Shown: positions 13,038 through 29,507 of the stretch, one piece after another
Position numbering within the stretch: position 1 is the first letter of the stretch
How the letters are laid out: the number at the start of each line of letters is the position of its first letter
Source: Deltaproteobacteria bacterium RBG_13_49_15
GTDB lineage: Bacteria > Desulfobacterota > Desulfobacteria > Desulfobacterales > UBA2156
Assembly: GCA_001797695.1 (NCBI GenBank)
Contig: MGQD01000056.1
Location: 1-29,507, forward strand
Length of the DNA: 29,507 nt
Direction: 5' to 3'
Notes under the pieces: generated by a model
What the model was told of the DNA's origin: nothing
What the model saw: the letters and a program-made list of their open reading frames with translations, nothing else
Database searches by the model: none
Translations under genes and position numbers: made by a program

Positions 13038-13141
13038 CGGGTAAAAACTTCCAACACAACGTTGACCGATTTGATCTTCTTAGAGTTATGATTATTTTGG
13101 TTCAAATAGAATATGATAGCCAAGGGTAAAGGAGCCTGGAA

Positions 13142-13369: not shown

Positions 13370-13371
13370 AG

Positions 13372-14319: not shown

Positions 14320-15829
14320 AGTTTTTTTAGTGGGAGCCGGGCCCGGAGATCCGGGCCTGATTACGGTCAAAGGGCTGGAATGCATTCGAAAAGCCGATGT
14401 GATCATTTACGACTACCTCGCCTCTCCATCTTTGTTGGCCAGTGCCGGCAACGATTGTGAGCTCATCTATGTAGGAAAAAAGGGAGGAGAACACATCCTT
14501 CCTCAGGATGAAATCAACGATCTCATCCTCAAGAAAGCAAAGCAGGGACTGATAGTTACACGCCTCAAAGGAGGCGATCCGTTTATTTTCGGCCGGGGAG
14601 GGGAAGAGGCGGAGGTCTTATCTGAAGCCGGAATATCCTTTGAAATCGTTCCGGGTGTAAGCTCCGCCATTGCGGCGCCGGCTTATTCCGGAATTCCGCT
14701 AACTCACCGTCAGTTCACTTCCACCGTAGGGTTTGTGACCGGCCATGAGGATCCGCAAAAAGAAGAATCGAGTATTAACTGGAGTGCTGTTGCAAAAGGG
14801 ATGGGGACGCTTGTTTTTCTAATGGGCGTTAAAAACCTTCCTAAGATCACCTCGAAGCTGAAGGAAAACGGCCTGCCCGGCAGGACACCCATCGCAATCG
14901 TCCAATGGGGTACAACCCCGCAACAGGTCACCGTCTCGGGGACCCTGGACACCATTGAAGAGACCGCTCGCGAAACCGGTATCAAGGCGCCGGCCGTCAT
15001 TTGCATCGGTGAAGTGGTCCGATTAAGGGAAAAGCTGAGATGGTTCGAAATCCGGCCGCTCTTTGGGAAGCGTGTGGTGGTGACTAGGGCGAGAGAGCAG
15101 GCCAGTGATCTGGTTCTTGCCTTATCGGATTTGGGCGCCGAATGTTTTGAATGCCCTACCATACGGATCGCCCCGCCTGATGATATCTCCCTTCTCGATC
15201 AGGCCATCGAACGGCTTGAGGGGTACCACTGGCTGATTTTCACCAGTGTTAACGGTGTGGCCGCTTTTTTCGAAAGGCTTTTTCTCAAGGGAAAAGATGT
15301 CAGAGCGCTTGGAGGGCTTAAAACAGCCGTTATCGGCCCGGCAACCCAAAGGAAGCTTTTTGAATTCGGCCTGAAAAGCGACCTCATTCCGGAAAGCTTC
15401 ATGGCCGAATCAATTATCACAGCTTTTTCGAAAGAAGATGTCAAAGGAAAAAAAATCCTTCTTCCTCGTGCCAAAGGAGCCCGCTCCGTTCTTCCCGCCG
15501 AGCTGAGCCGAATGGGGGCCGTCGTGGATGAAATCATCTCGTATGGCACCCGGGCGGTCGGTGAAAACGCACCCTTGGTTATCGAGCATCTTGAAAATAA
15601 AGCGGTCGATCTAATCACCTTTACAAGCTCATCCACGGCAAAGAACTTCAAGTCTTTTATCCCGGAAAACCGGTTTGAATCCCTGATGAGAGGGGTCGCC
15701 GTCGCCAGCATCGGCCCGATTACAACGGAAAGCGCGGAAAAGCTGGGTTTTAAGGTTCAGATTACGGCCGAAACATTTACCATCCCAGGACTAGTCGACG
15801 CCATTTGCCGGCATTACAGGAAAAAATGA
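14309..15829 (+). CDS. cobA: Uroporphyrinogen-III C-methyltransferase / uroporphyrinogen-III synthase fusion (CobA-HemD)
   Basis: LVGAGPGDPGLIT, RLKGGDPFIFGRGGEE, then HemD part VVVTRARE, IFTSVNGV, IGPAT, FTSSSTA. Confidence 0.95.
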   Translation: MNGKVFLVGAGPGDPGLITVKGLECIRKADVIIYDYLASPSLLASAGNDCELIYVGKKGGEHILPQDEINDLILKKAKQGLIVTRLKGGDPFIFGRGGEEAEVLSEAGISFEIVPGVSSAIAAPAYSGIPLTHRQFTSTVGFVTGHEDPQKEESSINWSAVAKGMGTLVFLMGVKNLPKITSKLKENGLPGRTPIAIVQWGTTPQQVTVSGTLDTIEETARETGIKAPAVICIGEVVRLREKLRWFEIRPLFGKRVVVTRAREQASDLVLALSDLGAECFECPTIRIAPPDDISLLDQAIERLEGYHWLIFTSVNGVAAFFERLFLKGKDVRALGGLKTAVIGPATQRKLFEFGLKSDLIPESFMAESIITAFSKEDVKGKKILLPRAKGARSVLPAELSRMGAVVDEIISYGTRAVGENAPLVIEHLENKAVDLITFTSSSTAKNFKSFIPENRFESLMRGVAVASIGPITTESAEKLGFKVQITAETFTIPGLVDAICRHYRKK

Positions 15830-15866: not shown

Positions 15867-16844
15867 TTGAATTTCATAAAAAAGAACTGGTTTCTTCTTG
15901 CGTTGGCGGCCGTTTGTGCGATCACCATCGTGGAGACCGGTGCAAGGCTGGCTCAGGCGGGGAACTGGTGCAAGTCCAAACATGGGGCGGATGCCGTTAT
16001 TTTTCTCATATTTCTGGCGACAGGCCTTATTCTCAAGACCGAAAAAATCAGGGAAGGAGTGGAGGATATCAAGGGAATTGCCATTACCCTCACGATCATT
16101 TTTGTTATTGCTCCTGGGGCGGCCTATGCCATCGCCTTGCTCCCTTTGGATCCCGGAATTAAAATCGGGCTGTTTCTGGTCGCCATCATGCCTTCAACCT
16201 TAACGAGCGGGGTTGTTATGACAGGCGCTTCGGGCGGGAATATGGCCAATTCGCTCCTCATTACCATCATAGGGAACGGACTGAGCATCATCACCATCCC
16301 GCTCACTTTGACAATCCTGCTGGGTATCGGAGGAGAGAGCCAGTCGGTTCCCATTCAAAAAGGAACAATGATGGTGCAGATCGCCCTTCTTGTCATGGTT
16401 CCTCTCCTGATAGGCCTGGTGCTGCGGCCAAAGAGATTGAACCTTGACCGGTGGTTCCAGCGCATGATCCCTGTTTTCAACCAATGCATGATTCTAGTAA
16501 TTGTATGGATGGCTCTGTCCGGCGCCAGAGAGGCGGTGCTCGGCGGGGGCGCCCGGACGTTTCAGATCCTTATCCTTTCCTTTCTGTTTCACGCGATTTT
16601 ATTGGCGGTTGCCTTTATTTCAGCACGCCTTTTCAGAATCGGACCGGGAAAAAGGGAAAGCATTATTTTTATGGGAGGGCAGAAGACCCTGCCGCTTTCG
16701 GTTTTGCTGCAAACGACACTATTCCCTCAATATGGCTTATCGCTTGTTTTTTGCGTCATCCACCATTTTGTGCACCTCATGATGGATGGATATCTGGTCG
16801 GCCGCTTTAGAACTTCTGCTCATTATAAAACTCAGCGGCGCTGA
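15867..16844 (+). CDS. Bile acid:sodium symporter (BASS/SBF-like) family transporter
   Basis: Multiple TM helices; MPSTLTSGVVMT and GGQKTLP motifs; TTG start. Confidence 0.85.
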   Translation: MNFIKKNWFLLALAAVCAITIVETGARLAQAGNWCKSKHGADAVIFLIFLATGLILKTEKIREGVEDIKGIAITLTIIFVIAPGAAYAIALLPLDPGIKIGLFLVAIMPSTLTSGVVMTGASGGNMANSLLITIIGNGLSIITIPLTLTILLGIGGESQSVPIQKGTMMVQIALLVMVPLLIGLVLRPKRLNLDRWFQRMIPVFNQCMILVIVWMALSGAREAVLGGGARTFQILILSFLFHAILLAVAFISARLFRIGPGKRESIIFMGGQKTLPLSVLLQTTLFPQYGLSLVFCVIHHFVHLMMDGYLVGRFRTSAHYKTQRR

Positions 16845-17844
16845 AGAACCGTTCATAGTTTCGCTTGTTGAACCAGCTTAAATATTCCTCCTCCGGTCTC
16901 GTCTCCTCTTCAAGAGCATGCCACACATCTTCCGGCATATCCCAATCGGAAGAGAGCATGTTTTCTTCGAGCTGTTCCAATTTTCTGACACCGATGATGA
17001 CAGAGGCGACGATCTTCCGTTTCAAAGGCCATGCAATTGCCAGCCTCGTCATGGAAATGCCGCATTCAGATGACACCTTTTCCAAAATTTGAGCTGTTTT
17101 CAACCCTTTAGCATGCCAGAACCTGGGCCCATCGACCTGGGTGCGGAAAAAATGACGTGTCCCCTCAGCCGGCTGGGTCATCCCCTTGTATTTACCGCTG
17201 AGAAGACCTCCTCCTAAAGGGCTGTAACATAAAAGGCCGATGCCGTGGTCCGAAATGGCCGGAATAATCTCTTTTTCCGGTTCCCGATGGATCAGATTGT
17301 AAACGTGCTGAGCGGCTATAAATTTTTCCAAATTCATTCGGGCGGATATTCCGGCGGCTTTGGCGATCTGCCATGCGAAAAGATTGCTGCAACCCAGATA
17401 GCGGACTTTGCCCTGCCTGACAAGGTCATCCAAAGCGCGAACGGTTTCTTCGAGTGGGGTAATGGGATCAGGACCGTGGATATAATAAAGATCAATATAA
17501 TCGGTTTTCATCCGCCTCAAGCTCCCTTCACAGGAAGCGATGACGTGTTTTCGGGAAAGGCCGTATCGGTTTGGTTCCTTACCCACGGGAAAATAACATT
17601 TTGAGGCGATGATTATTTGGTCCCGGGGGATCTGAGACATCATGTTTCCAAGGATTTCTTCTGATTTTCCCCCGGCATAGATATCGGCGCAATCCAGAAA
17701 ATTACCTCCGGTATCGAGATATTTTTTTATGATGGAATGGGCTTCTATTTCATCGCATCCCCAGTCAGGAGTGCCGAAGGTCATGGTTCCGAGGCTGATC
17801 CGGGAGACAAGGAGTCCGGATTTTCCTAAAAAACGATATTTCAT
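16807..17844 (-). CDS. Aldo/keto reductase
   Basis: MKYRFLGKSGLLVSRISLGTM, DCADIY, IASK, DLYYIH, YSPLGGGLLSGKY; start placed at ATG 17844 behind the strong SD aaggaggtg (the track's 18174 start is an upstream overrun). Confidence 0.93.
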   Translation of the reverse strand: MKYRFLGKSGLLVSRISLGTMTFGTPDWGCDEIEAHSIIKKYLDTGGNFLDCADIYAGGKSEEILGNMMSQIPRDQIIIASKCYFPVGKEPNRYGLSRKHVIASCEGSLRRMKTDYIDLYYIHGPDPITPLEETVRALDDLVRQGKVRYLGCSNLFAWQIAKAAGISARMNLEKFIAAQHVYNLIHREPEKEIIPAISDHGIGLLCYSPLGGGLLSGKYKGMTQPAEGTRHFFRTQVDGPRFWHAKGLKTAQILEKVSSECGISMTRLAIAWPLKRKIVASVIIGVRKLEQLEENMLSSDWDMPEDVWHALEEETRPEEEYLSWFNKRNYERFFSAAEFYNEQKF

Positions 17845-17877
17845 TTTCACCTCCTTGAGAAAGTAGATTGATCTTTT

Positions 17878-17906
17878 AAAATAAAATATCAGAAGCGTTA
17901 TGTCAA
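17878..17906 (-). promoter_or_regulatory. Putative sigma70 promoter for the aldo/keto reductase
   Basis: Minus strand TTGACA (17906-17901), 17 nt, TATTTT (17883-17878). Confidence 0.45.
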
Positions 17907-17980
17907 CCAGGCAGCATTGTGGAACCGACGATTGCTTGGCTTTATGGAGAAGTCGGATGTTTTTGCCTATCTTTTCCATT

Positions 17981-18008
17981 TTGAATGATACACGTTTTGT
18001 GGTAGAAT
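17981..18008 (+). promoter_or_regulatory. Putative sigma70 promoter with extended -10 for lipB-lipA
   Basis: TTGAAT (17981-17986), 16 nt, TAGAAT (18003-18008) preceded by TGn. Confidence 0.45.
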
Positions 18009-18051
18009 GATCGATCTTTCGATAGGTTAACGCAACCCAAAAGGAGCCCTT

Positions 18052-18786
18052 GTGAAGCTTTTGGTCGCCAAGATGGGGATGACGGATTACCAGAAGGCGC
18101 TTATCATTCAGGAAGCGCTGTTCCGAAAGCGCCAGCGCGAAGAAATAAGGGACATTATCCTTCTTCTGGAGCATCCGCCGACACTGACTCTGGGGTTGAG
18201 AGGGAAGGAATCAAATATTATTGCAACAAAGGCACAACTGAAGTCCTGCGGAGTGAAAGTGTTCAAAATTTACCGCGGGGGGGATGTGACCTATCATGGC
18301 CCCGGCCAACTCGTTGGATATCCCATCTTGAATCTGATCCAACATGGAAAAGACATCCGGCAATTTATATGGAACATTGAAGAAATCTTTATCCGCTTGT
18401 TGGATGAAGAATATGGACTTGAAGCCGGAAGAATGGACAAATATACAGGGGTTTGGGTAGGAAATGAGAAAATTACAGCTATCGGATGTTCGATCCGGCG
18501 CTGGGTGACCATGCACGGATTTGCCTTCAATGTGAATACCAATCTGGACCATTTTAAGTGGATCAATCCGTGCGGGCTAACGGATAAAACGGTCACATCA
18601 CTGCAACAGCGGATCGGCCGTCCATTGGATATGGAGTGTGTGTATGCACAGGTCGTCACCTACTTTACCCGACAGTTTAAAATGCAGGCTGAGATCATCA
18701 ATCAAGCAGCATTAACCGAATTGACGGAAAGCGAAAAAAATGAATCAGAAGAAACCGGAGTGGCTGAAAGTCAAATTGCAGGGTGA
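18052..18786 (+). CDS. lipB: Octanoyltransferase
   Basis: [54 protein letters not shown]; SD aaggag, GTG start. Confidence 0.95.
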
Positions 18787-19600
18787 AAAAGAGATCCACG
18801 AGGTCCGGACGATGCTGGAACGATTTTCGCTGCATACGGTTTGCGAAGAGGCCCGCTGTCCGAATATCATAGAATGCTTCGGGAGAAAAACAGCCACGTT
18901 TATGATTCTCGGCAACATCTGCACCCGCAACTGCACCTTTTGTAACATCACCCCGGGGCGCCCCCTAAGCCCTGATCCGGATGAGCCCTTTCATGTCGCT
19001 CAGGCGGTTCGGGGATTGGAACTGAAACATGCGGTCATCACCTCCGTTACCCGGGATGATCTTGCCGACGGGGGGGCGTCCCATTTTGCCAGGGTCATTG
19101 AGGAGATTAAAAAACTTGATATGCAGATTCAGATCGAAGTGCTTGTACCGGATTTTAAGGGGGATCAGGAAGCCTTGCTTCAGGTTGTCCTGGCAAAACC
19201 TCAGATCATCAACCATAACGTGGAAACGGTCCCAAGATTATATCCAAGCGTGCGGCCGGAGGCCGACTATCCACGTTCGCTTCAATTGCTGAAAAGGGTC
19301 AAAAACAGAGATCGCGATCTATTCACAAAATCCGGTTTGATGCTGGGGCTGGGCGAAGAAAGAGATGAAGTGCTCAGTGTTTTCGATGATTTGCGAAATG
19401 TGGAATGCGATTTTTTAACAGTTGGTCAATACCTGGCCCCTTCGAATCAACATCACCCGGTTATCGGTTTTGTCCATCCGGATATTTTTGAAGAGTATCG
19501 GATTGAAGGTCTGAAAAGAGGATTTAAGCATGTGGCTTCAGCGCCTTTGGTCAGAAGCTCTTACCATGCGGAACAGGCAATACAACGGTTAATGTTTTGA
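18740..19600 (+). CDS. lipA: Lipoyl synthase
   Basis: [18 protein letters not shown] (CX4CX5C), CTRNCTFC (radical SAM), NHNVETV, GQYL, VRSSY. Confidence 0.97.
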
Positions 19601-19607
19601 AGTCTTC

Positions 19608-20669
19608 TCAGGCTTTCTCTCCGGTATCGAACAGCATGACCCAGTCGTCGATGGATATTCCCGGCGTTTCAACGGAATGGTCCGAGTAGAATGCATCGAT
19701 CAGGGCTTTGAATTCCGAGCGTTTTGCTCCTTCAAACATGGATTCGAGAATCCGGACGGCATCCGGCGGATAGCAGAAGAAATCGCCTGAAATGGAAACC
19801 CCGGCAAATCGATCCTCGTGAATTTCGAAATCCGCTCGTATCAGTCCGCCATTTCCCTTATGAACCTTTTGGAAGAGGTGAACCCCGTCGCGGATCTTAA
19901 GTTTTAGACTAGAGATTCTGCTTTGGATTTTCGTCAGCCACGCATCGCTTTCCATGATGTCGCGAAGCTCATCCATTTTATTCCGTACCGGTTCATCGAG
20001 TGGTCTTGGGTTAAGCGGCCCCAGGAGTTTTGAAAATTCCTCGATCATCATCTCGTTCAGCCGGTCTTCATTCCATTTTATGGCGTTCTCTTCGCCCAAC
20101 TCCTGTCGGATGGTTGAAAGGTTCTCTTTAAGTGTCCGGTAAACTTTGTCGCGGAACTTTTCATCCGGCACTTTCAAAACATGAGCCATCATGTCATGGT
20201 TGAAATCCACGATGAGATTTCCCACAAACACGACAGAAGGGCCGATTTCTCCTACACCGCTTCCGCTGATTTTCCGATTTCCGGCAATAACATCGTTTAT
20301 GGGTTTATATTCGGCGGCAATTCCCAGCCGGCGATAAACATGGATCGCCGGCTGGAGGAATTTTTTATAAAACATCTCTTTTGAAGCGGGAATGCGCGGA
20401 TCATCGCGTTTTAGAATCATCTGGAAAAAGAGCTGATTCCCGTCGAGGTAAACCGCGCCGCCACCGACATCGCGACGGAACATCGGAATCCGATGGCTCC
20501 GGCAAAAATCAACGTCCACCTCCTTGAAAAGGTCCTGATGAAATCCGATACAGACATAAGGGCTTCGCGGAGAGAGCAGGATCAGGCCTTCACGGCCGAG
20601 CTTGGCCATGGCATGATAGACGAGTTGGGAATCATCCCAGGATTGTTTTCCAAGAAGATATAAATCCAT
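19608..20669 (-). CDS. lplA: Lipoate-protein ligase (LplA type with C-terminal accessory domain)
   Basis: CIGFHQ, RRDVGGGAVYLD, KPINDV, RKISGSG, GNLIVD; C-terminal GLIR...ISGDFF domain. Confidence 0.88.
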   Translation of the reverse strand: MDLYLLGKQSWDDSQLVYHAMAKLGREGLILLSPRSPYVCIGFHQDLFKEVDVDFCRSHRIPMFRRDVGGGAVYLDGNQLFFQMILKRDDPRIPASKEMFYKKFLQPAIHVYRRLGIAAEYKPINDVIAGNRKISGSGVGEIGPSVVFVGNLIVDFNHDMMAHVLKVPDEKFRDKVYRTLKENLSTIRQELGEENAIKWNEDRLNEMMIEEFSKLLGPLNPRPLDEPVRNKMDELRDIMESDAWLTKIQSRISSLKLKIRDGVHLFQKVHKGNGGLIRADFEIHEDRFAGVSISGDFFCYPPDAVRILESMFEGAKRSEFKALIDAFYSDHSVETPGISIDDWVMLFDTGEKA

Positions 20670-20694
20670 GAAACTTAGGTGTTACCTTTTAGGC

Positions 20695-21885
20695 TTAATG
20701 ACTCTCCATGGCTTTTCTGACCAATTGGACGATATCCATAACTTCCAGAGAGATCTTGTTGCGCTTAACATAAGCGGTGATGGTTCTCACACACTGCTGG
20801 CAGGAGGTAACCACGCTTTGGGCGCCGGTTGACAAAATTTCTTCTACTTTGAGCTTGGCGATTTTACCGGCCAACTCCGCGTCCATCATTTCCAGGTTGC
20901 CGCCGCCGCCGCAGCATCGACAATTTTCTTTGTTCCGGGGGAGTTCAATCAGCTTTATTCCGGGGATTGAACGGATGATCTCGCGGGGCGGATCAAAAAC
21001 GCGTGCTCCCCGGCCTAGGTCGCACGGGTCATGGTAGGTAACCGTCATGGGAAGTGATTTGAATTCTAGATTTTTTGACCGCACGAGTTTAAGCAAAAAC
21101 TCCGTGACATGGGTGAGCTCAATTTCTGCATGGTAATGATCACGCCACATCTGATAGCAGGACGGGCATGCAAAAATGGCGGTTTTAGCTCCCATTGCTT
21201 TTACCGAAGCCAGATTATGCTCTCTGAGCTCATCGAACATTTCCATGAACCCGGCTCCAAGCAGCGGGAAGCCGCAGCACCATTCCTCTTGGCCAAGGAG
21301 TGCAAAATCGACTCCTCCGGCATCCAGTATTTCTGCAAGTGCAATCGGTATTTTCTGAGCCAGCGGAAAATAGGAAGCCACACACCCGGTAAAGAAAATC
21401 ACTTCAGCCTGTTTTTTCAGGTAGCTGTCATCCCGGGGATGCCGCATATCAGCCACCCAATCCGCCCGCTCGGCGTTATCTTCTGCAAAAACATTGCGGC
21501 TTTGAGAAAGGTTTTTTCGGATCATGTCGATTTTTTGAGGGAAGGCGTCGGAATGGGCGAGATCCCGGCGCAAGGAAAACCATATCTCCTTTAGGCGTAT
21601 CCCCAGGGGGCAGACCTCTTGACAATTTCCGCAAAGGGTGCATCGGAAAACCGTATCAGCGTATTTCTTCCGGTCTTCTTGGGAAAGAGCTTTCCGGCCA
21701 AGCAGTTTCTGTAAGAGGCTGGTTTTTCCCTTCAGGTTCTCCCTTAATCGGCTCAGTCGATATACGGCGGAAAGCCTGCCGTCGGTTGCTGCCAAGGCTG
21801 CCGGGCATGCTTCAGCACATAAACGGCAGTTCGTGCAGGCGTCCATTTCCAGAAGCTGGCGGATAGTGTAGTCAGGCTTTTCCAT
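20695..21885 (-). CDS. HdrD/GlpC-like Fe-S oxidoreductase (two [4Fe-4S] motifs, two CCG domains)
   Basis: CTNCRLCAEACP, CTLCGNCQEVCP, FTGCVAS...EWCCGFP...ACPSC, YHDPCDLGR...CCGGGG...TSCQQC. Confidence 0.9.
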   Translation of the reverse strand: MEKPDYTIRQLLEMDACTNCRLCAEACPAALAATDGRLSAVYRLSRLRENLKGKTSLLQKLLGRKALSQEDRKKYADTVFRCTLCGNCQEVCPLGIRLKEIWFSLRRDLAHSDAFPQKIDMIRKNLSQSRNVFAEDNAERADWVADMRHPRDDSYLKKQAEVIFFTGCVASYFPLAQKIPIALAEILDAGGVDFALLGQEEWCCGFPLLGAGFMEMFDELREHNLASVKAMGAKTAIFACPSCYQMWRDHYHAEIELTHVTEFLLKLVRSKNLEFKSLPMTVTYHDPCDLGRGARVFDPPREIIRSIPGIKLIELPRNKENCRCCGGGGNLEMMDAELAGKIAKLKVEEILSTGAQSVVTSCQQCVRTITAYVKRNKISLEVMDIVQLVRKAMESH

Positions 21886-21917
21886 TTGGCGTATTTTGCT
21901 TTTGGCTAAAATTGAGT

Positions 21918-22340
21918 TTAGGTTTTAGCAAATTTTTTAATATCCGCCAGGATCCATTTTCTGATGGCGTCCGGCCCATGGATCAACATAGACAGCTCGG
22001 CTTTATCTGAGGGTTTGATTTTGAACATCCACCCTTTTCCATAGCAATCCTGATTGATAAGTCCGGGGGTATTTTCCAGTTCGTCATTCACTTCAACGAG
22101 CTCTCCGGTGACCGGTGCGTTGATTTTGCCAAGCCATTTCCCTGACTCGACCTTTGCGAATCGTTTTCCGGCGGTGAGCGTTTTTCCGGGTTCCGGAAGT
22201 TGCACATAAACGATCTCCCCGGCAAGCTTTTGGGCAAAATCATCCATGCCCATCATCAGTAGAGCTCCTTCTTCTTTGACCCAGCAGTGACCCTCTTCAT
22301 AATATCGGTCTTCGGGCATGTTGTAACCTTCGATATCCAT
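21918..22340 (-). CDS. gcvH: Glycine cleavage H-like / LbpA-like lipoyl carrier protein
   Basis: YYEEGHCWV, GMDDFAQKLAGEIVYVQLP, VESGK (lipoyl Lys), APVTGE..EVN, NQDCYGKGW; SD ggaggagg. No gcvP or gcvT in the window. Confidence 0.85.
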   Translation of the reverse strand: MDIEGYNMPEDRYYEEGHCWVKEEGALLMMGMDDFAQKLAGEIVYVQLPEPGKTLTAGKRFAKVESGKWLGKINAPVTGELVEVNDELENTPGLINQDCYGKGWMFKIKPSDKAELSMLIHGPDAIRKWILADIKKFAKT

Positions 22341-22385
22341 AATCTCCCTCCTCCAGTGTATAAAAACCTTATTATCGGATTGTTC

Positions 22386-24170
22386 TTAGGATCTGTTTCG
22401 CACGGCATTTATTGCCAGAACGACCGGCGCCAGGATGATGTGAAACATTCCGGAAAAAGGCAGATAGGCGATAAAAATTCCGGCCAACGCCGCATGAACA
22501 TACCAGATATATCCATAAATGGAATCAAGCCCCGTCATGCCGATAAATAATCGGCCGGCGCCATTTCCGATAAATGCATATCCCGAACCCGGCGGAAAAT
22601 CGGTCATGGCAATGCGTATTGCTTCAAGAGCAAACCCGACCAGCACAATGGTTCCGATAAGCCCGGTGGCAAGCCGGTCTTTTTTGGGAAGAGATGGAAG
22701 TTGCATGGGCCGGTCTTTTATATTTCGAACGATCGCCATCACTGCACCCGAGATGATCATCACACCTGTGAAATCGAAAACAAAGCCGCAAATCGGATGA
22801 TTTTTATTCAGCATCAACCAGGGGAATCTCGTTTCCGGCATCCATAAAGAGCCGATCAGCGCGATCATCCCCCATCCGAATCGCAAAGTTAAAGGCCAGA
22901 CGATAAGACCGTGAACCAGCCATCGCATGGTCGATCGACGATATAGCTGCAATTGGAGTAAGCCGTCCAGAAAAAGCGCTCTGGCGACTAATAATATCTT
23001 TTGGGAAAAAACCGTTTGAATGGTCAAACCGATCAACCCGGCAATTTTACGAACGATCCCGGCGGACTCTTTTCCAGGCCATGCGCCCGACAGCCAATAG
23101 GAAAAGGCCGATGCCGTTCCAAAACCAAAAATGATCAGGGCCAAAATCGTTATCGGGTCGGATGATGAAAAGGTAGCCGCATGGCAAGGCATGCAAAGAA
23201 TGCTCTTTGGAGGCAGAATCATTGCTGCAGCACCAACCGGATTCCCTTGGATGTGACATCTGCTGCAAAAGCGGTCGGTTTTTTCCGCGATCATGTTATG
23301 AATCACGCTGGGGGTATCGTCTTCAACCATCCGCAACCATATGACAGCTCCTGTTTGTGCGTCTTTTCGGGGAAAAATGGATTTGAGATGGCAGGCTTCA
23401 CAGGAGACGCCGGCGTGTCCGTCATGGATGACCTTATCATTGTGAGGGGTGTGGCATTTGCGGCAATCGGCCGCTTGTTGATCGGCATGTCCGAAACGGG
23501 CCGCTTCAGGATGGCACATCAGGCATGAGATCTTCTCATGGGGCCAAAATCCTTCAGATGAGATATTGAGCGCCGTCGGCTTGCTCTTTTCGCTAATAAA
23601 TCCAGCGCGGTTTTGCCGTCCGCGACAGATAAGGCATAAAACTTTGGAGTGCAATACCTCCCGGGGATCGTTCGGATCCAATCTGCGGTGACAGGCCATG
23701 CAGGCCTCATCTCCTACAGAAAGGGCCGGCAGGTGTTCTTTGAGCTCATGGCAGACTCCGCATTGTTTTTCACATGGCTGAGAAGGGTCGTAATGCCGGG
23801 CGGTCTTGGAGAGCCTTAATTGGTAGTGCGGATCATGGCATTTTGTGCAATGGCGGTAATCTTGATCCGTCTTTAAGGGATTCCCTGCGTGTTTTTCTTC
23901 CTTGATGTCTAAATATACCTTCTGATGGCAGCTTTCACATCGATCGGCGCGGAAAAAAGCTCTCGGGTTGGAATTGACCTTGGCTGGATCCGGATGAAAT
24001 TTTTTTTGGGAAATGTCGTGATGACATTCCAGGCAGGTAATTTGTCCATGAGCGGAAACATGCCGGCGTCCTTCTTCGATCAGCCATGACTCATCGGCGG
24101 ATATATTCCCGATAAAAATAAATGATGCCATCAGGCATACTGCGATTCCCTTTCCCATGGACCCCATCAA
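22386..24170 (-). CDS. Multiheme cytochrome c (10 CxxCH) fused to NarI/DsrM/HmcE-like cytochrome b membrane domain
   Basis: Signal-like N-terminus; CLECH, CESCH, CTKCH, CGVCH, CMACH, CLMCH, CRKCH, CEACH, CSRCH, CMPCH; then several TM helices with RWLVH, WYVH and LPFSGMFH. Start could be 24170 (TTG), 24167 or 24158. Confidence 0.85.
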   Translation of the reverse strand: MMGSMGKGIAVCLMASFIFIGNISADESWLIEEGRRHVSAHGQITCLECHHDISQKKFHPDPAKVNSNPRAFFRADRCESCHQKVYLDIKEEKHAGNPLKTDQDYRHCTKCHDPHYQLRLSKTARHYDPSQPCEKQCGVCHELKEHLPALSVGDEACMACHRRLDPNDPREVLHSKVLCLICRGRQNRAGFISEKSKPTALNISSEGFWPHEKISCLMCHPEAARFGHADQQAADCRKCHTPHNDKVIHDGHAGVSCEACHLKSIFPRKDAQTGAVIWLRMVEDDTPSVIHNMIAEKTDRFCSRCHIQGNPVGAAAMILPPKSILCMPCHAATFSSSDPITILALIIFGFGTASAFSYWLSGAWPGKESAGIVRKIAGLIGLTIQTVFSQKILLVARALFLDGLLQLQLYRRSTMRWLVHGLIVWPLTLRFGWGMIALIGSLWMPETRFPWLMLNKNHPICGFVFDFTGVMIISGAVMAIVRNIKDRPMQLPSLPKKDRLATGLIGTIVLVGFALEAIRIAMTDFPPGSGYAFIGNGAGRLFIGMTGLDSIYGYIWYVHAALAGIFIAYLPFSGMFHIILAPVVLAINAVRNRS

Positions 24171-25538
24171 TCACGGAATATAAATAGCCCAATCCAGCGC
24201 ATTGCGTGCGGCATCGGCCAGAGACTCGGAAATAGTGGGATGCGGCAGCACCGATCGTGCCAGATCCTCCAGGGTCGCCTCCATTTGGATGGCCAACGCC
24301 GCGGCGCCGATAATTTCTGTGGCAAATGGCGCTAAAACATGAACGCCGAGCAACTCTTTATATTTTTTTTCTCCAACCACTTTGACCACGCCATTGGTGG
24401 CGTCTTGAATCATTGCCATCGGACTGGTCCCCATGCTGGCCGCGCCTGTGACGACGTCATAACCGGCTTCTTCCGCCTCATTCTCCGTCAGTCCCACCGA
24501 TGCGGCCTGAGGAGAAGTAAACGCCACGCGGGGAACGATGTTATCATTAAAGGAGATTGATGCTCCAAGGGCGTTTTCTGCTGCGATGATCCCCATGGCA
24601 GAAGCACGATGTGACTGGAAGGGAATTCGGCCGACGGCGTCACCCACCGCCCAGATTCCGGGAACCTTGGTGGCTAACCGATCGTTTGTCGAAAGGTCTG
24701 ACAGTCCGACGGTTTCAAGCCCCAGTCCATCCAATGCAGGAGTGCGGTCGAGATAAATTACCCGATCAAACAGATGTGCCTCTTCCTTTTCCTTAACGGA
24801 TAAAATAGCCTTCAACCCTCCTCTATCTTTAACAAGAGAAACGATACTACAGGAGTTGTGAATCGTTATCGACGATGACTTCAGGATGCTGCGCAATCGC
24901 TGGCCGATCTCCTGATCAAAATGAGGGAGGATCCCCCGCTCCCGAACGGCCAGCATGACCTGTCCGCCGCAGGCGTTTAAAAACTGTCCAAGTTCCACAG
25001 CCCATGCACCTCCTCCTAATATCAGGGTTCGAGGCGGAATCCGACCCTCTTTCAGAAACTGGCTGGAATTGATGACTCCTTCCAATTCTGATCCTGGAAA
25101 CGACGGCCGCGCCCAATCGGCGCCGGCAGCTATGATAATGGCTTTGGCCTGATATATTTTTTCATCTACGGCGACCCGTCCCGCACCTGCCAGACGCCCG
25201 AGCCCTTGGATGGGGGTTACCTTTTTGGCCTTAATCAATCCCTGGGTCCCCATAGAGAAATAGCCGACCAGTTCATCTTTGAGCTTAAATAAAGCGGATG
25301 GATCTAGGGTCGCAGCGGCATTTGGGAATCCCATCTTGGCGGCAGTCCGGATTGTTTTGGTCCGTTCAAGCGTAGCGGTGAAAAGTTTGGTGGGCACACA
25401 TGCCCGATTCAGACAAAATCCCCCCCAATGTTTCTTTTCCACCAGGCCGACGGCAGCGCCAAGCTGAACTCCCCGTATGGCTGCGGCCACCCCGGCCGGT
25501 CCGCCTCCGATTACAATGATATCGAAGTGTTGAGTCAT
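24171..25538 (-). CDS. lpdA: Dihydrolipoamide dehydrogenase-like flavoprotein (E3)
   Basis: IVIGGGPAG FAD motif, GGFCLNRACVPTK redox disulfide, WAVGDA, HPTISE catalytic dyad. Confidence 0.88.
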   Translation of the reverse strand: MTQHFDIIVIGGGPAGVAAAIRGVQLGAAVGLVEKKHWGGFCLNRACVPTKLFTATLERTKTIRTAAKMGFPNAAATLDPSALFKLKDELVGYFSMGTQGLIKAKKVTPIQGLGRLAGAGRVAVDEKIYQAKAIIIAAGADWARPSFPGSELEGVINSSQFLKEGRIPPRTLILGGGAWAVELGQFLNACGGQVMLAVRERGILPHFDQEIGQRLRSILKSSSITIHNSCSIVSLVKDRGGLKAILSVKEKEEAHLFDRVIYLDRTPALDGLGLETVGLSDLSTNDRLATKVPGIWAVGDAVGRIPFQSHRASAMGIIAAENALGASISFNDNIVPRVAFTSPQAASVGLTENEAEEAGYDVVTGAASMGTSPMAMIQDATNGVVKVVGEKKYKELLGVHVLAPFATEIIGAAALAIQMEATLEDLARSVLPHPTISESLADAARNALDWAIYIP

Positions 25539-25589
25539 AAAATCTCTTTTTTATTCCTCCATCCGTTTTCCTCTTGGCCTCAATAGCTC

Positions 25590-26810
25590 TTAGAGCATGA
25601 GCGAAGGCTCCTCGATCATATCCTTTACTGTTTTTAGAAAGGATGCTCCGGGCGTTCCATCGATAATCCGGTGATCGAAAGTCAAGGATAGCGCCATACG
25701 CTGTTCCGCCACGACTGCGCCGTTTTTAATCACGGGTTTTGGTAAAATCCGTCCCACCCCTAATATGGCGCTTTCCGGCGGATTGACGATCGGTGTAAAG
25801 TTATCAATGTCCCACGCTCCGAGGTTGGTCAGGGTAAATGTCCCCATCGTGAGATCATCCAAAGACAATCTATTGGCTTTGGCCGCCTCGATAAGCCGTT
25901 CCAGGTCCGCCGCGATTTCCCGAATAGTTTTGGTCTCGGCATAGCGAACCTTTGGCACAATGAGACCTTTCCCGAAATCCATCGCCACACCGACATGGAT
26001 CTGACTCCAGATTTTAATGACTTCGCCGCTGACGCCGGCATTGACCATCGGATGCTGCTTCAACGCTTGGGCGATTATTTTTACAATGATGGCATTATAA
26101 GGGATTTTGTCTTCCAAGGCGGAGATCCGTTGGCGGATCCGGATCAGCGCTTCGGCGGATGCTTCGGTATGCAAGGTCAGTTGTGCTTGTGTGGAAAGGC
26201 TTAAATGCATATTCTTGAAAATCACCTTTCGAATTCCCGTAATGGGGATTTCCCGGGCCGCGCTTAAAAGTTCGCCTGCTGCCGGCGACTGCATCGGGGC
26301 GGCTTGGACTGGAACCCCCTTTTCAAGCGCCTTGAGGATATCGGCTCGTATGATCCTTCCGCCAGGTCCTGTACCCCGGATACCGGCGAGATTCATCCCA
26401 TGGGTTTTGGCCATGGCGCGGGCCACAGGAGATGCTTTGAATCGACCCTGGGGTTCCACTGGTGCGGCTGCTCCTGAGGTGTCCGTTCCAGTTGCCTGGG
26501 CCGCCTCCTCGACCTCTTTCGGGGCGGCTGTTTCTACCGCCGGATGCTGTGCGGCCAATTTCTCAAGTTCGTCCTTGTCTGCCGCTAGATACCCCACGAT
26601 CTGTCCCACGACCACTCGGGTTCCTGCGGGTATTACCGGGTGGAGCAATCCGTCTCCCGGCGAGGGCATCTCGAAGGTAACCTTGTCGGTTTCGATTACC
26701 AGCACGATTTCGTCTTTTTTAATCATTTGGGCGGAAGCAAATTTCCAACAAACAAGGGCTGCTTCTTCCATTGTGAGCCCCAGTTTCGGTATCTGTATTT
26801 CGATTGCCAT
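25590..26810 (-). CDS. acoC: Dihydrolipoamide acyltransferase (E2; lipoyl, subunit-binding and catalytic domains)
   Basis: IPKLGLTMEEA, IETDKV (lipoyl Lys), ASPVARAMA...GTGPGGRI, FTLTNLG, DHRIIDG. acoC versus pdhC inferred from the E1 type. Confidence 0.85.
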   Translation of the reverse strand: MAIEIQIPKLGLTMEEAALVCWKFASAQMIKKDEIVLVIETDKVTFEMPSPGDGLLHPVIPAGTRVVVGQIVGYLAADKDELEKLAAQHPAVETAAPKEVEEAAQATGTDTSGAAAPVEPQGRFKASPVARAMAKTHGMNLAGIRGTGPGGRIIRADILKALEKGVPVQAAPMQSPAAGELLSAAREIPITGIRKVIFKNMHLSLSTQAQLTLHTEASAEALIRIRQRISALEDKIPYNAIIVKIIAQALKQHPMVNAGVSGEVIKIWSQIHVGVAMDFGKGLIVPKVRYAETKTIREIAADLERLIEAAKANRLSLDDLTMGTFTLTNLGAWDIDNFTPIVNPPESAILGVGRILPKPVIKNGAVVAEQRMALSLTFDHRIIDGTPGASFLKTVKDMIEEPSLML

Positions 26811-26826
26811 GCGTGCCTTCCTTCCT

Positions 26827-27810
26827 TTATCGGTAGCAAACGGTTTTCACGGACTGGATCACGTCGGCCGGCTTGGGTATAACGAAATCCTCTAAAACCG
26901 GGGAAAACGGTATGGGCACGTCCTTGGCTGCAACCCTCAGGACCGGAGCGTCCAGGTCATCAAATAGCTCGGCCTGGATCCGGGCGACTAACTCGGCGCC
27001 GAAACCGCCTGTCAGACAGGCTTCGTGCACGACAACCGCGCGGTTGGTTTTTTTTATCGATATGGCGATCGTGTTCATATCGAGGGGCTTTAAGGTTCGC
27101 AGATCTATCACTTCAGCCTCGATCCCTTGTTCGGCAAGCTGCGAGGCAGCATCCATACAAATGAAAAAACCGGAACCGTAGGTCAGCAGGCTGACATCTT
27201 TTCCTTCCCGTTTAACCGCCGCTTTGCCGAGTGGAATGATAAATTCCGGGTTGTCGGGCACCAGCCCCTCCCGCCGGAAGAGACGTTTGTGCTGAAAAAA
27301 CATCACCGGGTTATCGTCCCGGATAGAAGCCTTTATAAGACCTTTGACATCAGCCGCTTCAGACGGCACTACCACTTTGAGGCCGGGAGTGTGAACGAAC
27401 CACGCTTCTAAAGATTGGCTGTGCTGGGCGGCGGCCCGCAATCCTGCTCCGTCCGGACACCAAACCACCAGCGGCAGTTTGACCTGGCCGCCGAACATGT
27501 AACGGATCTTGGCCGCCTGATTGCAGAGTTCATCCATGCCGCAGGTGACAAAATCCGAAAAATGGAAATCCACAATAGGACGCATACCGGTCAACGCAGC
27601 CCCGACGCCGCAGCCGGCAATGCAGGTCTCGCTGATAGGGGTATCGATAATCCGGCTGGGATATTTTTCGGGGATCCCCTTGAATTGACCGAAAATGCCG
27701 GCATGCGCGGTCAGATCTTCGCCTACGATGAAGATGGTTTCGTCCCTTTCCATCTCTTCCAAAAGGGCTTCCGCCAGGGCTGCAGATGCACTCATCATTC
27801 GATCAGACAT
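26827..27810 (-). CDS. acoB: TPP-dependent dehydrogenase E1 beta subunit (AcoB/PdhB-like)
   Basis: GEDL, IIDTPISE, GMRP, AAQHSQSLEAWF...PGLKVV, IDLRTLKPLD. Confidence 0.85.
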   Translation of the reverse strand: MSDRMMSASAALAEALLEEMERDETIFIVGEDLTAHAGIFGQFKGIPEKYPSRIIDTPISETCIAGCGVGAALTGMRPIVDFHFSDFVTCGMDELCNQAAKIRYMFGGQVKLPLVVWCPDGAGLRAAAQHSQSLEAWFVHTPGLKVVVPSEAADVKGLIKASIRDDNPVMFFQHKRLFRREGLVPDNPEFIIPLGKAAVKREGKDVSLLTYGSGFFICMDAASQLAEQGIEAEVIDLRTLKPLDMNTIAISIKKTNRAVVVHEACLTGGFGAELVARIQAELFDDLDAPVLRVAAKDVPIPFSPVLEDFVIPKPADVIQSVKTVCYR

Positions 27811-27822
27811 GGTTGGTCTCCT

Positions 27823-28791
27823 TTATGCATTTACGAAAAGGTCTTCTAAAGCCTCCTCCGGCTTGGGGAATGGGCTGTTCTTGGCGAATTCGAGGGCCTC
27901 ATCCAGTTCGGATTTCACCTCGTCCCAAATTGTTTTGGATTTTTTTCCGGTAAGAATCCGGTCTTTAACAAGGAGCTGTTCGAAACGGGCGATCGGATCG
28001 TTTTCTTTCTGCCAGGTTATGACTTCAGCCTGGTTGCGGTATTTTTGAGGATCACCCTCAAAATGCCCTCGCACCCGGTAGGTTTTGTTTTCGATCATGG
28101 TCGGACCTTCTCCGCTCCGGGCTCTTGATATTGCTTCAAGAGCAGCTTTCCTGACAGCGATCACATCGTTTCCATCCACGCCGATTCCCGGCATATTGTA
28201 GGCAGCGGCCCGCTGACAGAGGTCCCTTAAAGAGCAGGAATACCCCTGAGGCGTGGTGGATGCATACTGATTGTTTTCAACCACAAAGATCACCGGGAGT
28301 TTCCAGATGGAAGCCATGTTCATTGCTTCATGCACCGGTCCGCGGTTCGAAGCGCCGTCCCCGAAAAAAACCACGGCAACCTGGTCGGTTTTGCGCAGCT
28401 TGATGGATAAACCGGCGCCGGTAATAAGCGGGAGGCCGCCGGCCACAACACCGTTGGCGCCGATGATTCCAATGGAGAAATCGGCGATGTGCATGGAGCC
28501 TCCTTTTCCTTTGCAATATCCGGTGACTTTACCGAACAACTCGGCCGTCATCCGTTTCAGGTCCGCTCCCTTAGCGATCAGATGACCATGTCCCCGATGG
28601 GTGGTGGCTACGTAGTCGACCGGGCGCAGGCATGAGCAGACCCCGACGCTGGAGGCTTCCTGGCCGATGGACAGGTGGATGAATCCGGGGATCTGACCGG
28701 CAGCAAAATGCTCGCCGGCCATGGTTTCGAACTGGCGGATGGTGACCATGGTCCGGTACATCGATAAAAGGGTTTTTTTCTCAGAGGTCAT
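27823..28791 (-). CDS. acoA: TPP-dependent dehydrogenase E1 alpha subunit (AcoA-like)
   Basis: PGFIHLSIGQEA, THRGHGH, GGSMHIAD, GDG...NN TPP motif, YRVRGHFEGD (GHFEGD is typical of acetoin dehydrogenase, where PDH has GHSMSD); ATG 28791 follows SD aaggag. Confidence 0.85.
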   Translation of the reverse strand: MTSEKKTLLSMYRTMVTIRQFETMAGEHFAAGQIPGFIHLSIGQEASSVGVCSCLRPVDYVATTHRGHGHLIAKGADLKRMTAELFGKVTGYCKGKGGSMHIADFSIGIIGANGVVAGGLPLITGAGLSIKLRKTDQVAVVFFGDGASNRGPVHEAMNMASIWKLPVIFVVENNQYASTTPQGYSCSLRDLCQRAAAYNMPGIGVDGNDVIAVRKAALEAISRARSGEGPTMIENKTYRVRGHFEGDPQKYRNQAEVITWQKENDPIARFEQLLVKDRILTGKKSKTIWDEVKSELDEALEFAKNSPFPKPEEALEDLFVNA

Positions 28792-28848
28792 ACGGAATCT
28801 CCTTTTTCTTTCCTGAATCATTAAAGCTTTATTCTATCAAACCCTTTA

Positions 28849-28869
28849 AACCCGATTTCAACTCGGGTT
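28849..28869. repeat. Intergenic stem-loop between DUF296 gene and E1 alpha
   Basis: aacccga-tttcaac-tcgggtt, 7-bp stem. Confidence 0.6.
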
Positions 28870-28894
28870 GTTTTCAGGCAATCTGAAATGCTAC

Positions 28895-29374
28895 CTAGAT
28901 ATTCGCTTTGGCAGGGATGAGAAGTTTCATCTCCACTTCCGGGTCATACTGATGCAAGATCCTCAATCCTTCCAACTGATGCATCATTATTTCACAAGTA
29001 ATAAGGACAGGGCACTCTCCTTTGATTAAATGACCTCCATGGGCATTTCCCCGGCTATCGCTGAACACCCCATGAACATGGATGAAAAGATTCTCATTGT
29101 CATCTATACCGATACTCCCTTGAGCTGAAATGAGCTCCAAGGGTCCTTCCATCGAGATCGGCTCGCTGTAACCGCCTCCCATTTTGTTTTTCATTGGAAC
29201 AACGGAAAAAAAAGAGGCCCGCTGAAGACTTCCGATACAAGCTGTGATAGAACCGCTTCGTATTTTGAGATTTTTACAAACCCCTGAGATCCCCTCGATG
29301 ATGTCTGAGCCAGGATGAAGTCTGATCATCACCGGTTTTGAATGAGACCCTTGTTGGTATGTCGCTTTAACCAT
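28895..29374 (-). CDS. DUF296 / PPC-domain protein
   Basis: IRLHPGSDIIEGI, CIGSL, ELISAQGSI, HVHGVFSD..G..HGGHL signature. Confidence 0.9.
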   Translation of the reverse strand: MVKATYQQGSHSKPVMIRLHPGSDIIEGISGVCKNLKIRSGSITACIGSLQRASFFSVVPMKNKMGGGYSEPISMEGPLELISAQGSIGIDDNENLFIHVHGVFSDSRGNAHGGHLIKGECPVLITCEIMMHQLEGLRILHQYDPEVEMKLLIPAKANI

Positions 29375-29412
29375 CCTCTTTTCCTTTTTGCATATGCAGT
29401 GAAGACCTGTTC

Positions 29413-29507
29413 CTAAATCATGAGTCCTCCGCCATTGGAGTCAATAGAGGCTCCTGTAATGTTTACGGCGAAGTCGCTCACCAGAAATCCGATCGTCCAT
29501 GCCTGCT
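29413..29507 (-). CDS. C-terminal fragment of a short-chain dehydrogenase/reductase (SDR), truncated by window edge; not in supplied track
   Basis: Hand translation from 29505 gives QAWTIGFLVSDFAVNITGASIDSNGGGLMI*, matching the classical SDR C-terminal FL.SD.A..ITG..I...GG motif. Confidence 0.75.
   Translation of the reverse strand, partial: QAWTIGFLVSDFAVNITGASIDSNGGGLMI

Follow-up and report, generated by a model that had tools for sequence, protein, structure and literature searches.

The contig MGQD01000056.1 of Deltaproteobacteria bacterium RBG_13_49_15 (assembly GCA_001797695.1) was analysed over a stretch of 29,507 nucleotides, which we refer to as the window. It carries four consecutive genes for a multihaem c::b cytochrome, a GcvH-like lipoyl carrier, an HdrD-like iron-sulfur protein and an LplA-type lipoate-protein ligase, on which the genes lipB and lipA converge. 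Together these genes probably encode a transmembrane redox complex of the Tmc/HdrDE kind, whose proposed cytoplasmic substrate is the dithiolane/dithiol of the dedicated lipoylated H-type carrier; we assign this reading a probability of roughly 0.55. As the best-supported reading of its role, the module would give several dehydrogenases an outlet for their electrons, or a reversible connection.

An earlier note on this DNA, made from the sequence alone, had seen an acetoin or 2-oxoacid dehydrogenase wired through a lipoyl carrier to a membrane-bound Hdr-like complex and a periplasmic multihaem cytochrome. This interpretation is partly supported. The note also stated that no characterised complex of this composition was known, and our full-text literature searches returned no description of the module. 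It is new in the sense of being undescribed in the accessible literature; the sole conceptual precedent that we found, and the nearest idea, is the LarG annotation hypothesis for Pelobacter carbinolicus (PMC3543383).

Gene content of the window

Reading of the open reading frames (ORFs) and their Pfam matches confirmed the ten co-directional genes on the minus strand at 19608-29507 that the earlier note had listed; the intergenic gaps are 0-73 nt. The genes of the run, in the order of their reading direction, and the two lipoylation genes facing them are:

29413..29507 (fragment 29413-29505), minus: 3' end (C-terminal fragment) of an SDR-family dehydrogenase; open-ended ORF running past the window end
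28895..29374, minus: PCC/DUF296 domain protein (Pfam PF03479, 1.5e-25)
27823..28821, minus: E1alpha of a heterotetrameric thiamine pyrophosphate-dependent 2-oxoacid dehydrogenase of the pyruvate dehydrogenase (PDH)/acetoin type (PF00676, 4.7e-89)
26827..27810, minus: E1beta (Pfam Transket_pyr and Transketolase_C)
25590..26810, minus: E2 dihydrolipoyl acyltransferase (Pfam Biotin_lipoyl, E3_binding and 2-oxoacid_dh)
24171..25538, minus: E3-like flavoprotein disulfide oxidoreductase whose nicotinamide-dinucleotide site is atypical (Pyr_redox_2 and Pyr_redox_dim)
22386..24170, minus: fusion of a multihaem cytochrome c with a NarI/DsrM-like cytochrome b (Cytochrome_C7, c3_2 and weak Nitrate_red_gam matches)
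21918..22340, minus: specialised GcvH/LbpA-like lipoyl carrier (PF01597, 4.9e-38)
20695..21885, minus: HdrD-like iron-sulfur protein (two Pfam CCG domains and Fer4_8)
19608..20669, minus: LplA-type lipoate-protein ligase with a catalytic and an LplB-like C-terminal domain (LplA-B_cat, 1.1e-34)
18740..19600, plus: LipA lipoyl synthase (TIGR00510, 374 bits against a cut-off of 310)
18052..18786, plus: LipB octanoyl/lipoyl transferase, upstream of lipA (TIGR00214, 163 bits against a cut-off of 84; Pfam LplA-B_cat, 1.2e-47)

The stop of the E3 gene abuts the cytochrome ORF, as had been noticed before; the likely ATG of the cytochrome lies 12 nt inside this ORF. The contig (C56) continues for 1.4 kb beyond position 29507, where the SDR gene is complete and is preceded by a gene for a TRAP DctM permease. 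At the other end, the lipB-lipA pair, which was not listed in the earlier note and is part of the picture, leaves a gap of 7 nt between lipA and the ligase gene.

Conservation and genomic contexts of the module

More than 660 full-length relatives of the cytochrome were found in the protein collection, the named ones coming from metagenome-assembled genomes of Desulfobacterota, and at E<=1e-30 the 50%-identity representatives numbered 135. Species-representative genomes were scanned as well, and at least 168 species genomes encode the cytochrome; the neighbourhoods of 80 loci from the 168 encoding stretches were examined. We regarded 37 loci with at least 6.5 kb of downstream sequence as informative and searched them by tblastn with the window proteins. 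In 34 of these 37 the cytochrome gene is followed by genes for a GcvH-like (at least 55% identity) and an HdrD-like protein (at least 50% identity), and in 25 of the 37 the LplA-like ligase follows the HdrD-like gene as well. Such an order, recurring in 34 of 37 loci from other species, is far beyond chance. The co-occurrence that the earlier note had asked for was thus found, and it supports the view that cytochrome, GcvH-like carrier, HdrD-like protein and ligase belong together as a conserved unit. What these loci show directly is which genes the module has, which motifs its proteins carry and how well it is conserved. Of 151 genomes drawn from across the window's order, 27 had a homologue, and the module is therefore an accessory one.

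Neighbour clustering combined with the cytochrome tree separated three groups of loci. Group (a) is an aco/PDH-type clade of 14 rows (100 in the approximate likelihood-ratio test) that includes the window; the genes for E1alpha, E1beta, E2 and E3 stand directly before the cytochrome, and TRAP DctPQM, SDR and PCC genes are often found upstream. In its sister group (b), the cytochrome is preceded by genes for distant 2-oxoacid dehydrogenases (30-53% identity), by an acetoin-reductase-like SDR, or by nothing recognisable. Group (c), the lactate-type loci, is a large clade of 49 rows; a gene for a LarA-like racemase lies upstream, and genes for a GlcD-like flavin adenine dinucleotide (FAD) dehydrogenase and a second, GlcF-like CCG protein are inserted between cytochrome and carrier. 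Judged by this clustering, the aco linkage is a trait of one clade of a wider module and not its defining feature. Attachment to dehydrogenases as such is recurrent and involves lipoyl-dependent or flavin/CCG sets.

The same aco-type operon occurs in a cultured Desulfarculales isolate, Dethiosulfatarculus sandiegensis. In this locus (L086, AZAC01000008.1) genes for a beta-keto acid cleavage enzyme (BKACE) and a LipB-like protein lie at 11535-13303 between E3 and cytochrome, and a divergent GntR/FCD regulator is encoded upstream. On a Desulfatiglandales chromosome (L017, 4825-9381), a lactate-type module stands behind genes for a methylmalonyl-CoA-mutase-like enzyme, a protein that binds B12, an AMP-forming ligase and an SDR. 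We considered a link of this B12 mutase and CoA ligase to the acetone pathway of Desulfococcus biacutus and dropped it, since PMC4103992 mentions no such genes. Fifteen lactate-type loci (e.g. L075, 9472-9789) share a recurrent protein of about 105 residues near the module, with a single transmembrane (TM) segment and no Pfam match.

The HdrD-like protein

In the HdrD-like protein a pair of ferredoxin-type [4Fe-4S] motifs is combined with two complete CCG domains, as had been read from the sequence before, and the protein has neither a TM segment nor a flavin domain. Its 18 ligand cysteines, comprising the eight ferredoxin cysteines and both C...CCG...CxxC sets, are kept in 38-39 of 39 orthologs, so that both complete cluster motifs of the HdrB/HdrD type are retained. 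The best NCBIfam match was TfrB, a thiol-oxidising enzyme, with 191 bits, which is under the cut-off. The scores against the equivalog models of TmcB (91 against a cut-off of 735), HmcF (72 against 750) and DsrK (96 against 400) all fell far short, and the DsrK encoded elsewhere in the same genome has a single CCG domain. In the Protein Data Bank (PDB), the best match was the mycobacterial EtfD (9ojn, 2e-42). The full C...CCG...CxxC pair is present in the HdrD-like protein as it is in HdrB, HdrD and TfrB, whereas EtfD is one cysteine short. In EtfD it is the first CCG site that lacks a cysteine, and the clusters pass electrons from ETF to haem b (PMC13083937).

The multihaem cytochrome

The cytochrome has 594 residues and consists of a Sec-type signal peptide, a periplasmic multihaem c domain and a C-terminal NarI/DsrM-like b domain with five TM segments. 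We counted ten CxxCH motifs and one degenerate motif, CLICR, at residues 179-183. This sixth haem site reads CxxCH in 76 of 77 relatives, including one that is 81% identical, and CLICR in the window protein alone; 70 of the 77 relatives carry eleven CxxCH. The count of ten haems in the earlier note is right for the CxxCH motifs of the window protein, but the family, by its motifs, is an 11-haem one. CLICR arises from a single CGC codon 183 (window 23622-23624, minus strand) and is a private His-to-Arg change, or possibly an assembly error. A stretch of 519 nt within window 23549-24069 is missing in frame in a relative of about 89% identity from an aquifer RNA library and in the database protein P0008. 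The gap takes out residues ~33-206, hence haems 1-5, and leaves the signal peptide; in this lineage the haem domain seems able to do without its N-terminal half.

Fold searches with the membrane domain gave weak matches to EtfD (9ojn) and NarI, and a helix-V motif, YVH-x17-H, is common to the cytochrome and the DsrM of the same genome (alignment E 3e-5). His420, His559, His577 and Arg430 are invariant in the 77 relatives, and in the membrane domain these three histidines are the only invariant ones. Ten residues past His420, all 77 proteins have Arg430 where NarI and the DsrM of the genome have the second helix-II histidine, a ligand of the distal haem. The equation of Arg430 with NarI His66 rests on the H-x9-[H/R] spacing, as the MAFFT alignment of helix II with DsrM is ambiguous in register. 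With this register, the four haem-b histidines of HdrDE-type proteins, two on helix II and two on helix V, are not all present. These residues suggest to us a single proximal haem b with two histidine ligands (His420/His577) and a changed distal site.

The earlier note had named quinone as one possible acceptor. Since the position of the distal-haem histidine of NarI is occupied by an invariant arginine, quinone coupling through a quinol site of the NarI type is doubtful, and the altered distal site favours a putative direct wire from haem b to the c haems. The codons concerned lie at window 22881-22883 (Arg430) and 22494-22496 (His559). Ten conserved non-motif histidines of the c domain and His559 would give eleven distal ligands for eleven c haems. 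The pattern hints that a c haem may replace the distal haem b. We also found a shorter paralogous family of ~490-530 residues and ~32% identity (e.g. G037:C3:1445014-1446336), in which the match starts at query residue ~150, with fewer haems and the same membrane domain.

The lipoyl carrier and the lipoylation genes

The carrier has its lipoyl-lysine, K68, within the sequence ESGKW. Both ESGKW and Cys99 are invariant in 57 of 57 module-linked carriers, while the housekeeping GcvH has ESVKA and a proline at these places; Cys19 of the window protein is a phenylalanine in 37 of the 57 copies. A further gcvH of the canonical kind, to whose product the window carrier is 42% identical, lies next to gcvP on contig C115, where a canonical Lpd is also encoded. 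Neither gcvP nor gcvT adjoins the carrier gene, although the carrier, with 138 bits, passes the cut-off of 117 of the broad model for the GcvH subfamily. The family-specific residues and the separate housekeeping copy support its identification as a specialised second H protein. The LbpA proteins are defined by two extra conserved cysteines, one N-terminal and one C-terminal (PMC6067878); searches of PDB, NCBIfam and Atlas turned up no LbpA structure or model, and the carrier was set beside LbpA by the published description.

Matches of the window ligase to the Lipoyltrans, LplA_large and LplB models were all under cut-off. The lipA and lipB genes of the window are the only copies found in the genome, and lipA adjoins the module also in loci L001, L042, L048, L058 and L080. 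A 455-residue aldo/keto reductase with an N-terminal extension of ~120 residues is encoded next to lipB (16807-18174, minus), a neighbour kept in L001 with 70% identity. Many loci of groups (b) and (c), and at least L004 in group (a), carry genes for an LplA::DUF116 fusion, a geranylgeranyl-reductase-like (LipT-like) flavoprotein and two radical-SAM proteins, which is the set described for LbpA maturation (PMC10332631). On one closed Desulfatiglandales chromosome the module occurs with its private ligases and without any match to E2, so that the ligases there can serve only H-type proteins. This argues that the lipoylation genes may serve the carrier itself.

Dehydrogenase genes and the E3-like flavoprotein

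Among the dehydrogenase genes, E1alpha is 81-87% identical across the aco-type loci and scores 362 bits with the NCBIfam model PDH_E1_alph_y, slightly under the cut-off of 394; E1beta is over the cut-off of a PDH E1beta subfamily (369 bits against 321). The E2 carries its own lipoyl and E3-binding domains and is the sole E2 found in this 80%-complete genome. The PCC/DUF296 gene is kept upstream of E1alpha in loci L002, L004 and L012, and the SDR has an ortholog with 65% identity in L012; it is a generic FabG/BudC-like protein, with scores under the cut-offs, as is general in the window clade. An acetoin-reductase-like SDR (245 bits against a cut-off of 304) is limited to the Syntrophobacteraceae variant. 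We saw neither acoX nor acoR in the locus, and the matches of E1alpha to plasmid proteins bore generic names only, so that acetoin and pyruvate enzymes were not separated. The earlier note was right that E1alpha, E1beta, E2 and E3 stand in one operon, and the enzyme can be called a PDH/acetoin-type dehydrogenase. Its label as an acetoin dehydrogenase is tentative, as E1 scores best as PDH-type and a transporter of the TRAP carboxylate type heads the operon.

The E3 reaches 345 bits with the Lipoamide_DH model, under its cut-off of 409, with MerA as the second-best model. Its intact features are the FAD fingerprint, the CLNRAC disulfide motif, the GD motif and HPTISE with its His-Glu dyad. At the nicotinamide site the sequence is GGGAWA...LAVRER; canonical Lpd shows GxGxxG...VVE there, and Lpd structures align VTLIE or VTVVE. 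The protein thus lacks the GxGxxG fingerprint for nicotinamide adenine dinucleotide (NAD) and the acidic residue at the end of beta-2 that mark NAD-dependent Lpd, and the housekeeping Lpd of the same genome, on C115, is canonical. The motif A[AV]R[ED]R is common to the E3s of all 11 aco-type loci, three of which have the second glycine broken, and the E3s of other loci linked to 2-oxoacid dehydrogenases read GAGTIE, DAGYIE or GANTIE. Of 92 E3 relatives, 91 retain the FAD-binding GxGxxG, all 92 retain CxxxxC and all 92 HPTxxE, and only 38 retain the NAD-site GxGxx[GA]. We dropped AVRER as a universal NADP-type signature of module-linked E3s, as the E3 of D. sandiegensis keeps its glutamate. The safest reading seems to be an E3 family whose pyridine-nucleotide site is under weak constraint. 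That electrons pass to the membrane instead of to NAD, one of the two options named in the earlier note, fits the atypical site of the window protein.

Host genome and transcription data

The host genome is a bin from soil or sediment with a size of 2.6 Mb. It encodes dsrA, DsrK and a [NiFe] hydrogenase; the bona fide DsrK (730 bits) is on contig C194, and the true DsrMK is located away from the window. In an aquifer metatranscriptome library, we found contigs of the ~89%-identical relative mentioned above, one of which, with 5,982 nt, covers carrier, cytochrome, E3, E2, E1beta and a partial E1alpha. The relative was present in one RNA-library run and the contigs are unstranded; the contig lends weak support to co-transcription across the junction. 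Unrelated housekeeping genes of the window, at 384-2661, 7691-9112 and 13267-15829, encode two PilT/T2SSE-like ATPases, the selenocysteine synthase SelA, HemC and a CobA/HemD fusion.

Proposed mechanism and its alternatives

From these data we infer what the complex acts on, which partners it has, which way electrons flow and that quinone is bypassed. In the proposed sequence of events, a carboxylate would enter through the TRAP system and be oxidised by the SDR if needed. The PDH/acetoin-type E1-E2 complex would then carry out the oxidative decarboxylation and reduce the lipoyl arm of E2, and the E3-like flavoprotein might hand the two electrons, wholly or in part, to the free lipoyl carrier and not to NAD+. 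The soluble dihydrolipoyl carrier would diffuse to the membrane, where the HdrD-like protein could oxidise it at its two non-cubane clusters. From there electrons would travel over the two cubane clusters and the proximal haem b (His420/His577) to the 10-11 c haems and on to the cytochrome pool of the periplasm. Probably the chain can run both ways, and it could instead send periplasmic electrons to the lipoyl carrier and then to NAD(P).

Two observations count for a complex acting on the lipoylated carrier, besides the conserved gene order, the closed chromosome with no E2 match, the invariant residues of the carrier, the complete cluster motifs and TfrB match of the HdrD-like protein, the weakly kept NAD site of the E3 family, the RNA contig and the operon of D. 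sandiegensis. Three different dehydrogenase sets are attached to the module, namely aco/PDH-type, other 2-oxoacid dehydrogenases and LarA-GlcD-GlcF, and dedicated lipoylation genes travel with it. A more specific version of this reading can be offered as a tentative one, and we hold it for possible but somewhat doubtful. In it the lipoylated H-type protein would be a diffusible two-electron carrier and form a pool of protein-bound dithiol, fed by 2-oxoacid dehydrogenases through E3-like flavoproteins freed from dependence on NAD(P), and directly by FAD/CCG 2-hydroxyacid dehydrogenases. The HdrD-like oxidase would sit on a single-chain haem wire in which a c haem, possibly ligated by His559, replaces the distal, quinone-facing haem b, and electrons would reach the periplasmic cytochrome pool bypassing NAD(H) and menaquinone.

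Several points weigh against the lipoyl-carrier reading. The E3 of D. sandiegensis retains the NAD-binding glutamate and the canonical fingerprint is kept in 38 of 92 relatives, so NAD(P) may still be used by the E3. The AlphaFold2 model of the cytochrome is poor (pLDDT 50), and our promoter and terminator scan of the window gave no signal beyond chance. The RNA contig spanning the junction is unstranded and the convergent lipA is covered at similar depth, so that DNA carry-over may have contributed. Lactate has a textbook potential of -190 mV. The lipoyl group has a potential of -290 mV (PMC6067878), and the transfer from lactate to lipoyl in the lactate-type loci would therefore be uphill under standard conditions. 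Finally, the non-cubane CCG clusters are plain electron relays in EtfD (PMC13083937) and in EMO (bioRxiv 10.64898/2026.08.18.745454), because of which the CCG motifs of the HdrD-like protein permit thiol chemistry without proving it.

The same complex could also run inwards, as do Tmc and Hmc, with periplasmic reductant from H2 or formate reaching the lipoyl carrier through c cytochromes, and with the E3-like enzyme making NAD(P)H or the carrier feeding a reductive reaction. Such a direction would suit the periplasmic electron economy of sulfate reducers, as seen in the [NiFe] hydrogenase and dsrA/DsrK of the genome, and the architecture of cytochrome c, cytochrome b and CCG protein parallels Tmc. 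The arginine-rich AVRER in the E3 of the window clade resembles NADPH enzymes, and inward flow with protons being taken up on the cytoplasmic side would build membrane potential by the established redox-loop logic of NarGHI and HdrDE. However, the module closes catabolic operons that also encode importers, racemases and dehydrogenases, which suggests an outlet for substrate electrons, and none of the 80 loci examined contains hydrogenase or formate dehydrogenase genes. We regard inward flow as rather unlikely.

Alternatively, GcvH-like protein, LplA, LipB and LipA might be a mere cofactor-assembly cassette for E2, similar to the lipoyl relay of Bacillus, and the HdrD-like protein and cytochrome a relay in the style of EtfD or EMO, fed directly by E3 or the GlcD flavoprotein and with no lipoyl substrate. 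EtfD, whose CCG clusters only relay electrons, is indeed the best solved homologue of the HdrD-like protein, aco operons are known with lipoate genes (e.g. acoS and lipB in Pelobacter carbinolicus, PMC3543383), and the window holds the only lipB-lipA found in the genome. We nevertheless consider this explanation unlikely on the grounds that in nearly all loci the carrier gene has its place between the cytochrome gene and the HdrD-like gene, also in lactate-type loci without an E2 nearby, and that the closed chromosome described above combines module and private ligases with no E2 match. Moreover, the family-specific invariant residues of the carrier differ from housekeeping GcvH, and the HdrD-like protein retains the full cysteine set that EtfD lost.

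It is still less probable that the carrier is a sulfur carrier as proposed for the LbpA of sHdr systems, in which lipoyl thiols and Cys99 would hold sulfane sulfur or a trisulfide, reduced or oxidised by the HdrD-like/cytochrome complex in dissimilatory sulfur metabolism. The carrier does have an invariant extra cysteine absent from GcvH, and extra conserved cysteines define LbpA (PMC6067878); the LbpA-type maturation genes in related loci (LplA::DUF116 fusion, LipT-like and radical-SAM) and the dsr genes of the hosts also point this way. Cys19, the candidate for the N-terminal cysteine of the LbpA type, is, however, not conserved (Phe in 37 of 57), genes for TusA, DsrE, rhodanese or sHdrA appeared in none of the 80 neighbourhoods, and the neighbours are dehydrogenases of carbon substrates and importers. 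The weakest explanation is plain adjacency, in which two independent and functionally unlinked units, one of dehydrogenase genes and one of cytochrome, carrier and HdrD genes, happen to be neighbours: the module is also found without aco genes and the transcript-level evidence for a link in this organism is indirect, but this explanation is very improbable given an E3-cytochrome gap of 0-12 nt, an RNA-library contig spanning the junction, its conservation across the 14-locus clade although the cytochrome diverged to 44-63% identity, its presence in the cultured Desulfarculales isolate, and at least two or three further occasions on which other 2-oxoacid dehydrogenase sets joined the module.

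A lipoyl-fed complex of the kind that we propose would bear on a long-standing gap, namely how sulfate reducers and syntrophs bring electrons released by substrate oxidation in the cytoplasm to membrane and periplasm, including the acceptors of HdrD-type lactate dehydrogenases and the fate of electrons at the level of dihydrolipoamide. If true, lipoic acid on a small carrier protein would be a respiratory electron shuttle, beyond its role as a swinging arm and beyond the LbpA of sulfur oxidisers, and Hdr-type non-cubane clusters would have a new natural dithiol substrate. In Desulfobacterota of sediment, soil and aquifers the module is widespread, and the availability of at least one cultured strain makes the idea directly testable.

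Comparison with known systems

The HdrDE of Methanosarcina likewise combines a NarI-type cytochrome b with a soluble subunit carrying two [4Fe-4S] motifs and two complete CCG domains, and its substrate is a disulfide/dithiol on the cytoplasmic side, the side that we presume for the window module as well. Unlike HdrDE, the module is found in a bacterial host, its b domain is fused to a periplasmic c domain with 10-11 haems, and one of the four haem-b histidines is an invariant arginine. Its presumed substrate is a lipoyl protein and not CoM-S-S-CoB, and there is no methanophenazine; a methanogenic cofactor context is implausible for a bacterium with dsr genes. With TmcABCD, HmcABCDEF and DsrMK(JOP), the module shares a transmembrane wire made of periplasmic multihaem c, NarI-like b and a cytoplasmic CCG protein, and for those systems DsrC was proposed as the protein-bound dithiol substrate. 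Here, in contrast, a single polypeptide holds the c and b parts, the unit includes a lipoyl carrier and a ligase, and the HdrD-like protein has two CCG domains where DsrK has one.

The sHdr-LbpA system of Hyphomicrobium and Thioalkalivibrio (PMC6067878, PMC10332631) also ties an Hdr-like CCG enzyme genetically to a specialised GcvH-like protein. As in that system, the window encodes a distinct GcvH-like protein with the conserved lipoyl-lysine and has private lipoylation genes beside the carrier; in relatives these comprise a ligase, a LipT-like flavoprotein and radical-SAM genes resembling lipoyl synthase. The genes for sHdrA/B/C (sHdrA/B1/B2/C1/C2) and for TusA/DsrE were absent among the recurrent neighbour clusters of the 80 loci. 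Further differences are the partner, which in the window is a membrane HdrD/cytochrome complex, apparently the conservation of only one extra cysteine, the neighbouring genes for carbon dehydrogenases and the dsr-carrying anaerobic hosts.

EtfD of mycobacteria (PDB 9OJN; PMC13083937) is the best solved homologue of the HdrD-like protein and the best fold match of the membrane domain. It leads electrons from a cytoplasmic donor over CCG and cubane clusters to haem b and is a precedent for outward flow. Both EtfD and EMO of Syntrophus (bioRxiv 10.64898/2026.08.18.745454) are single polypeptides with ETF as the donor, and they reduce (methyl)menaquinone. In the window, the genes are separate with the carrier gene between them, no etfAB occurs in the loci, a c-haem domain is fused to the b domain, and both CCG sites are complete.

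The dehydrogenase genes resemble AcoABCL and pyruvate dehydrogenase in having E1alpha-beta, an E2 with lipoyl and E3-binding domains, and an E3, in an aco-like order after an SDR, and the aco clusters of P. carbinolicus likewise carry lipoate genes. They differ in that a TRAP transporter and the PCC protein precede them, in the non-canonical NAD site of the E3, and in that the operon runs on into the membrane redox module. The LarG and Lpd hypothesis for P. carbinolicus (PMC3543383) comes closest in concept, as it has a GcvH-like lipoyl protein shuttling electron pairs between a membrane complex and dihydrolipoamide dehydrogenase. It differs from the module described here in being an annotation proposal, in involving a different membrane complex (Act/ACIII), and in having no HdrD-like partner.

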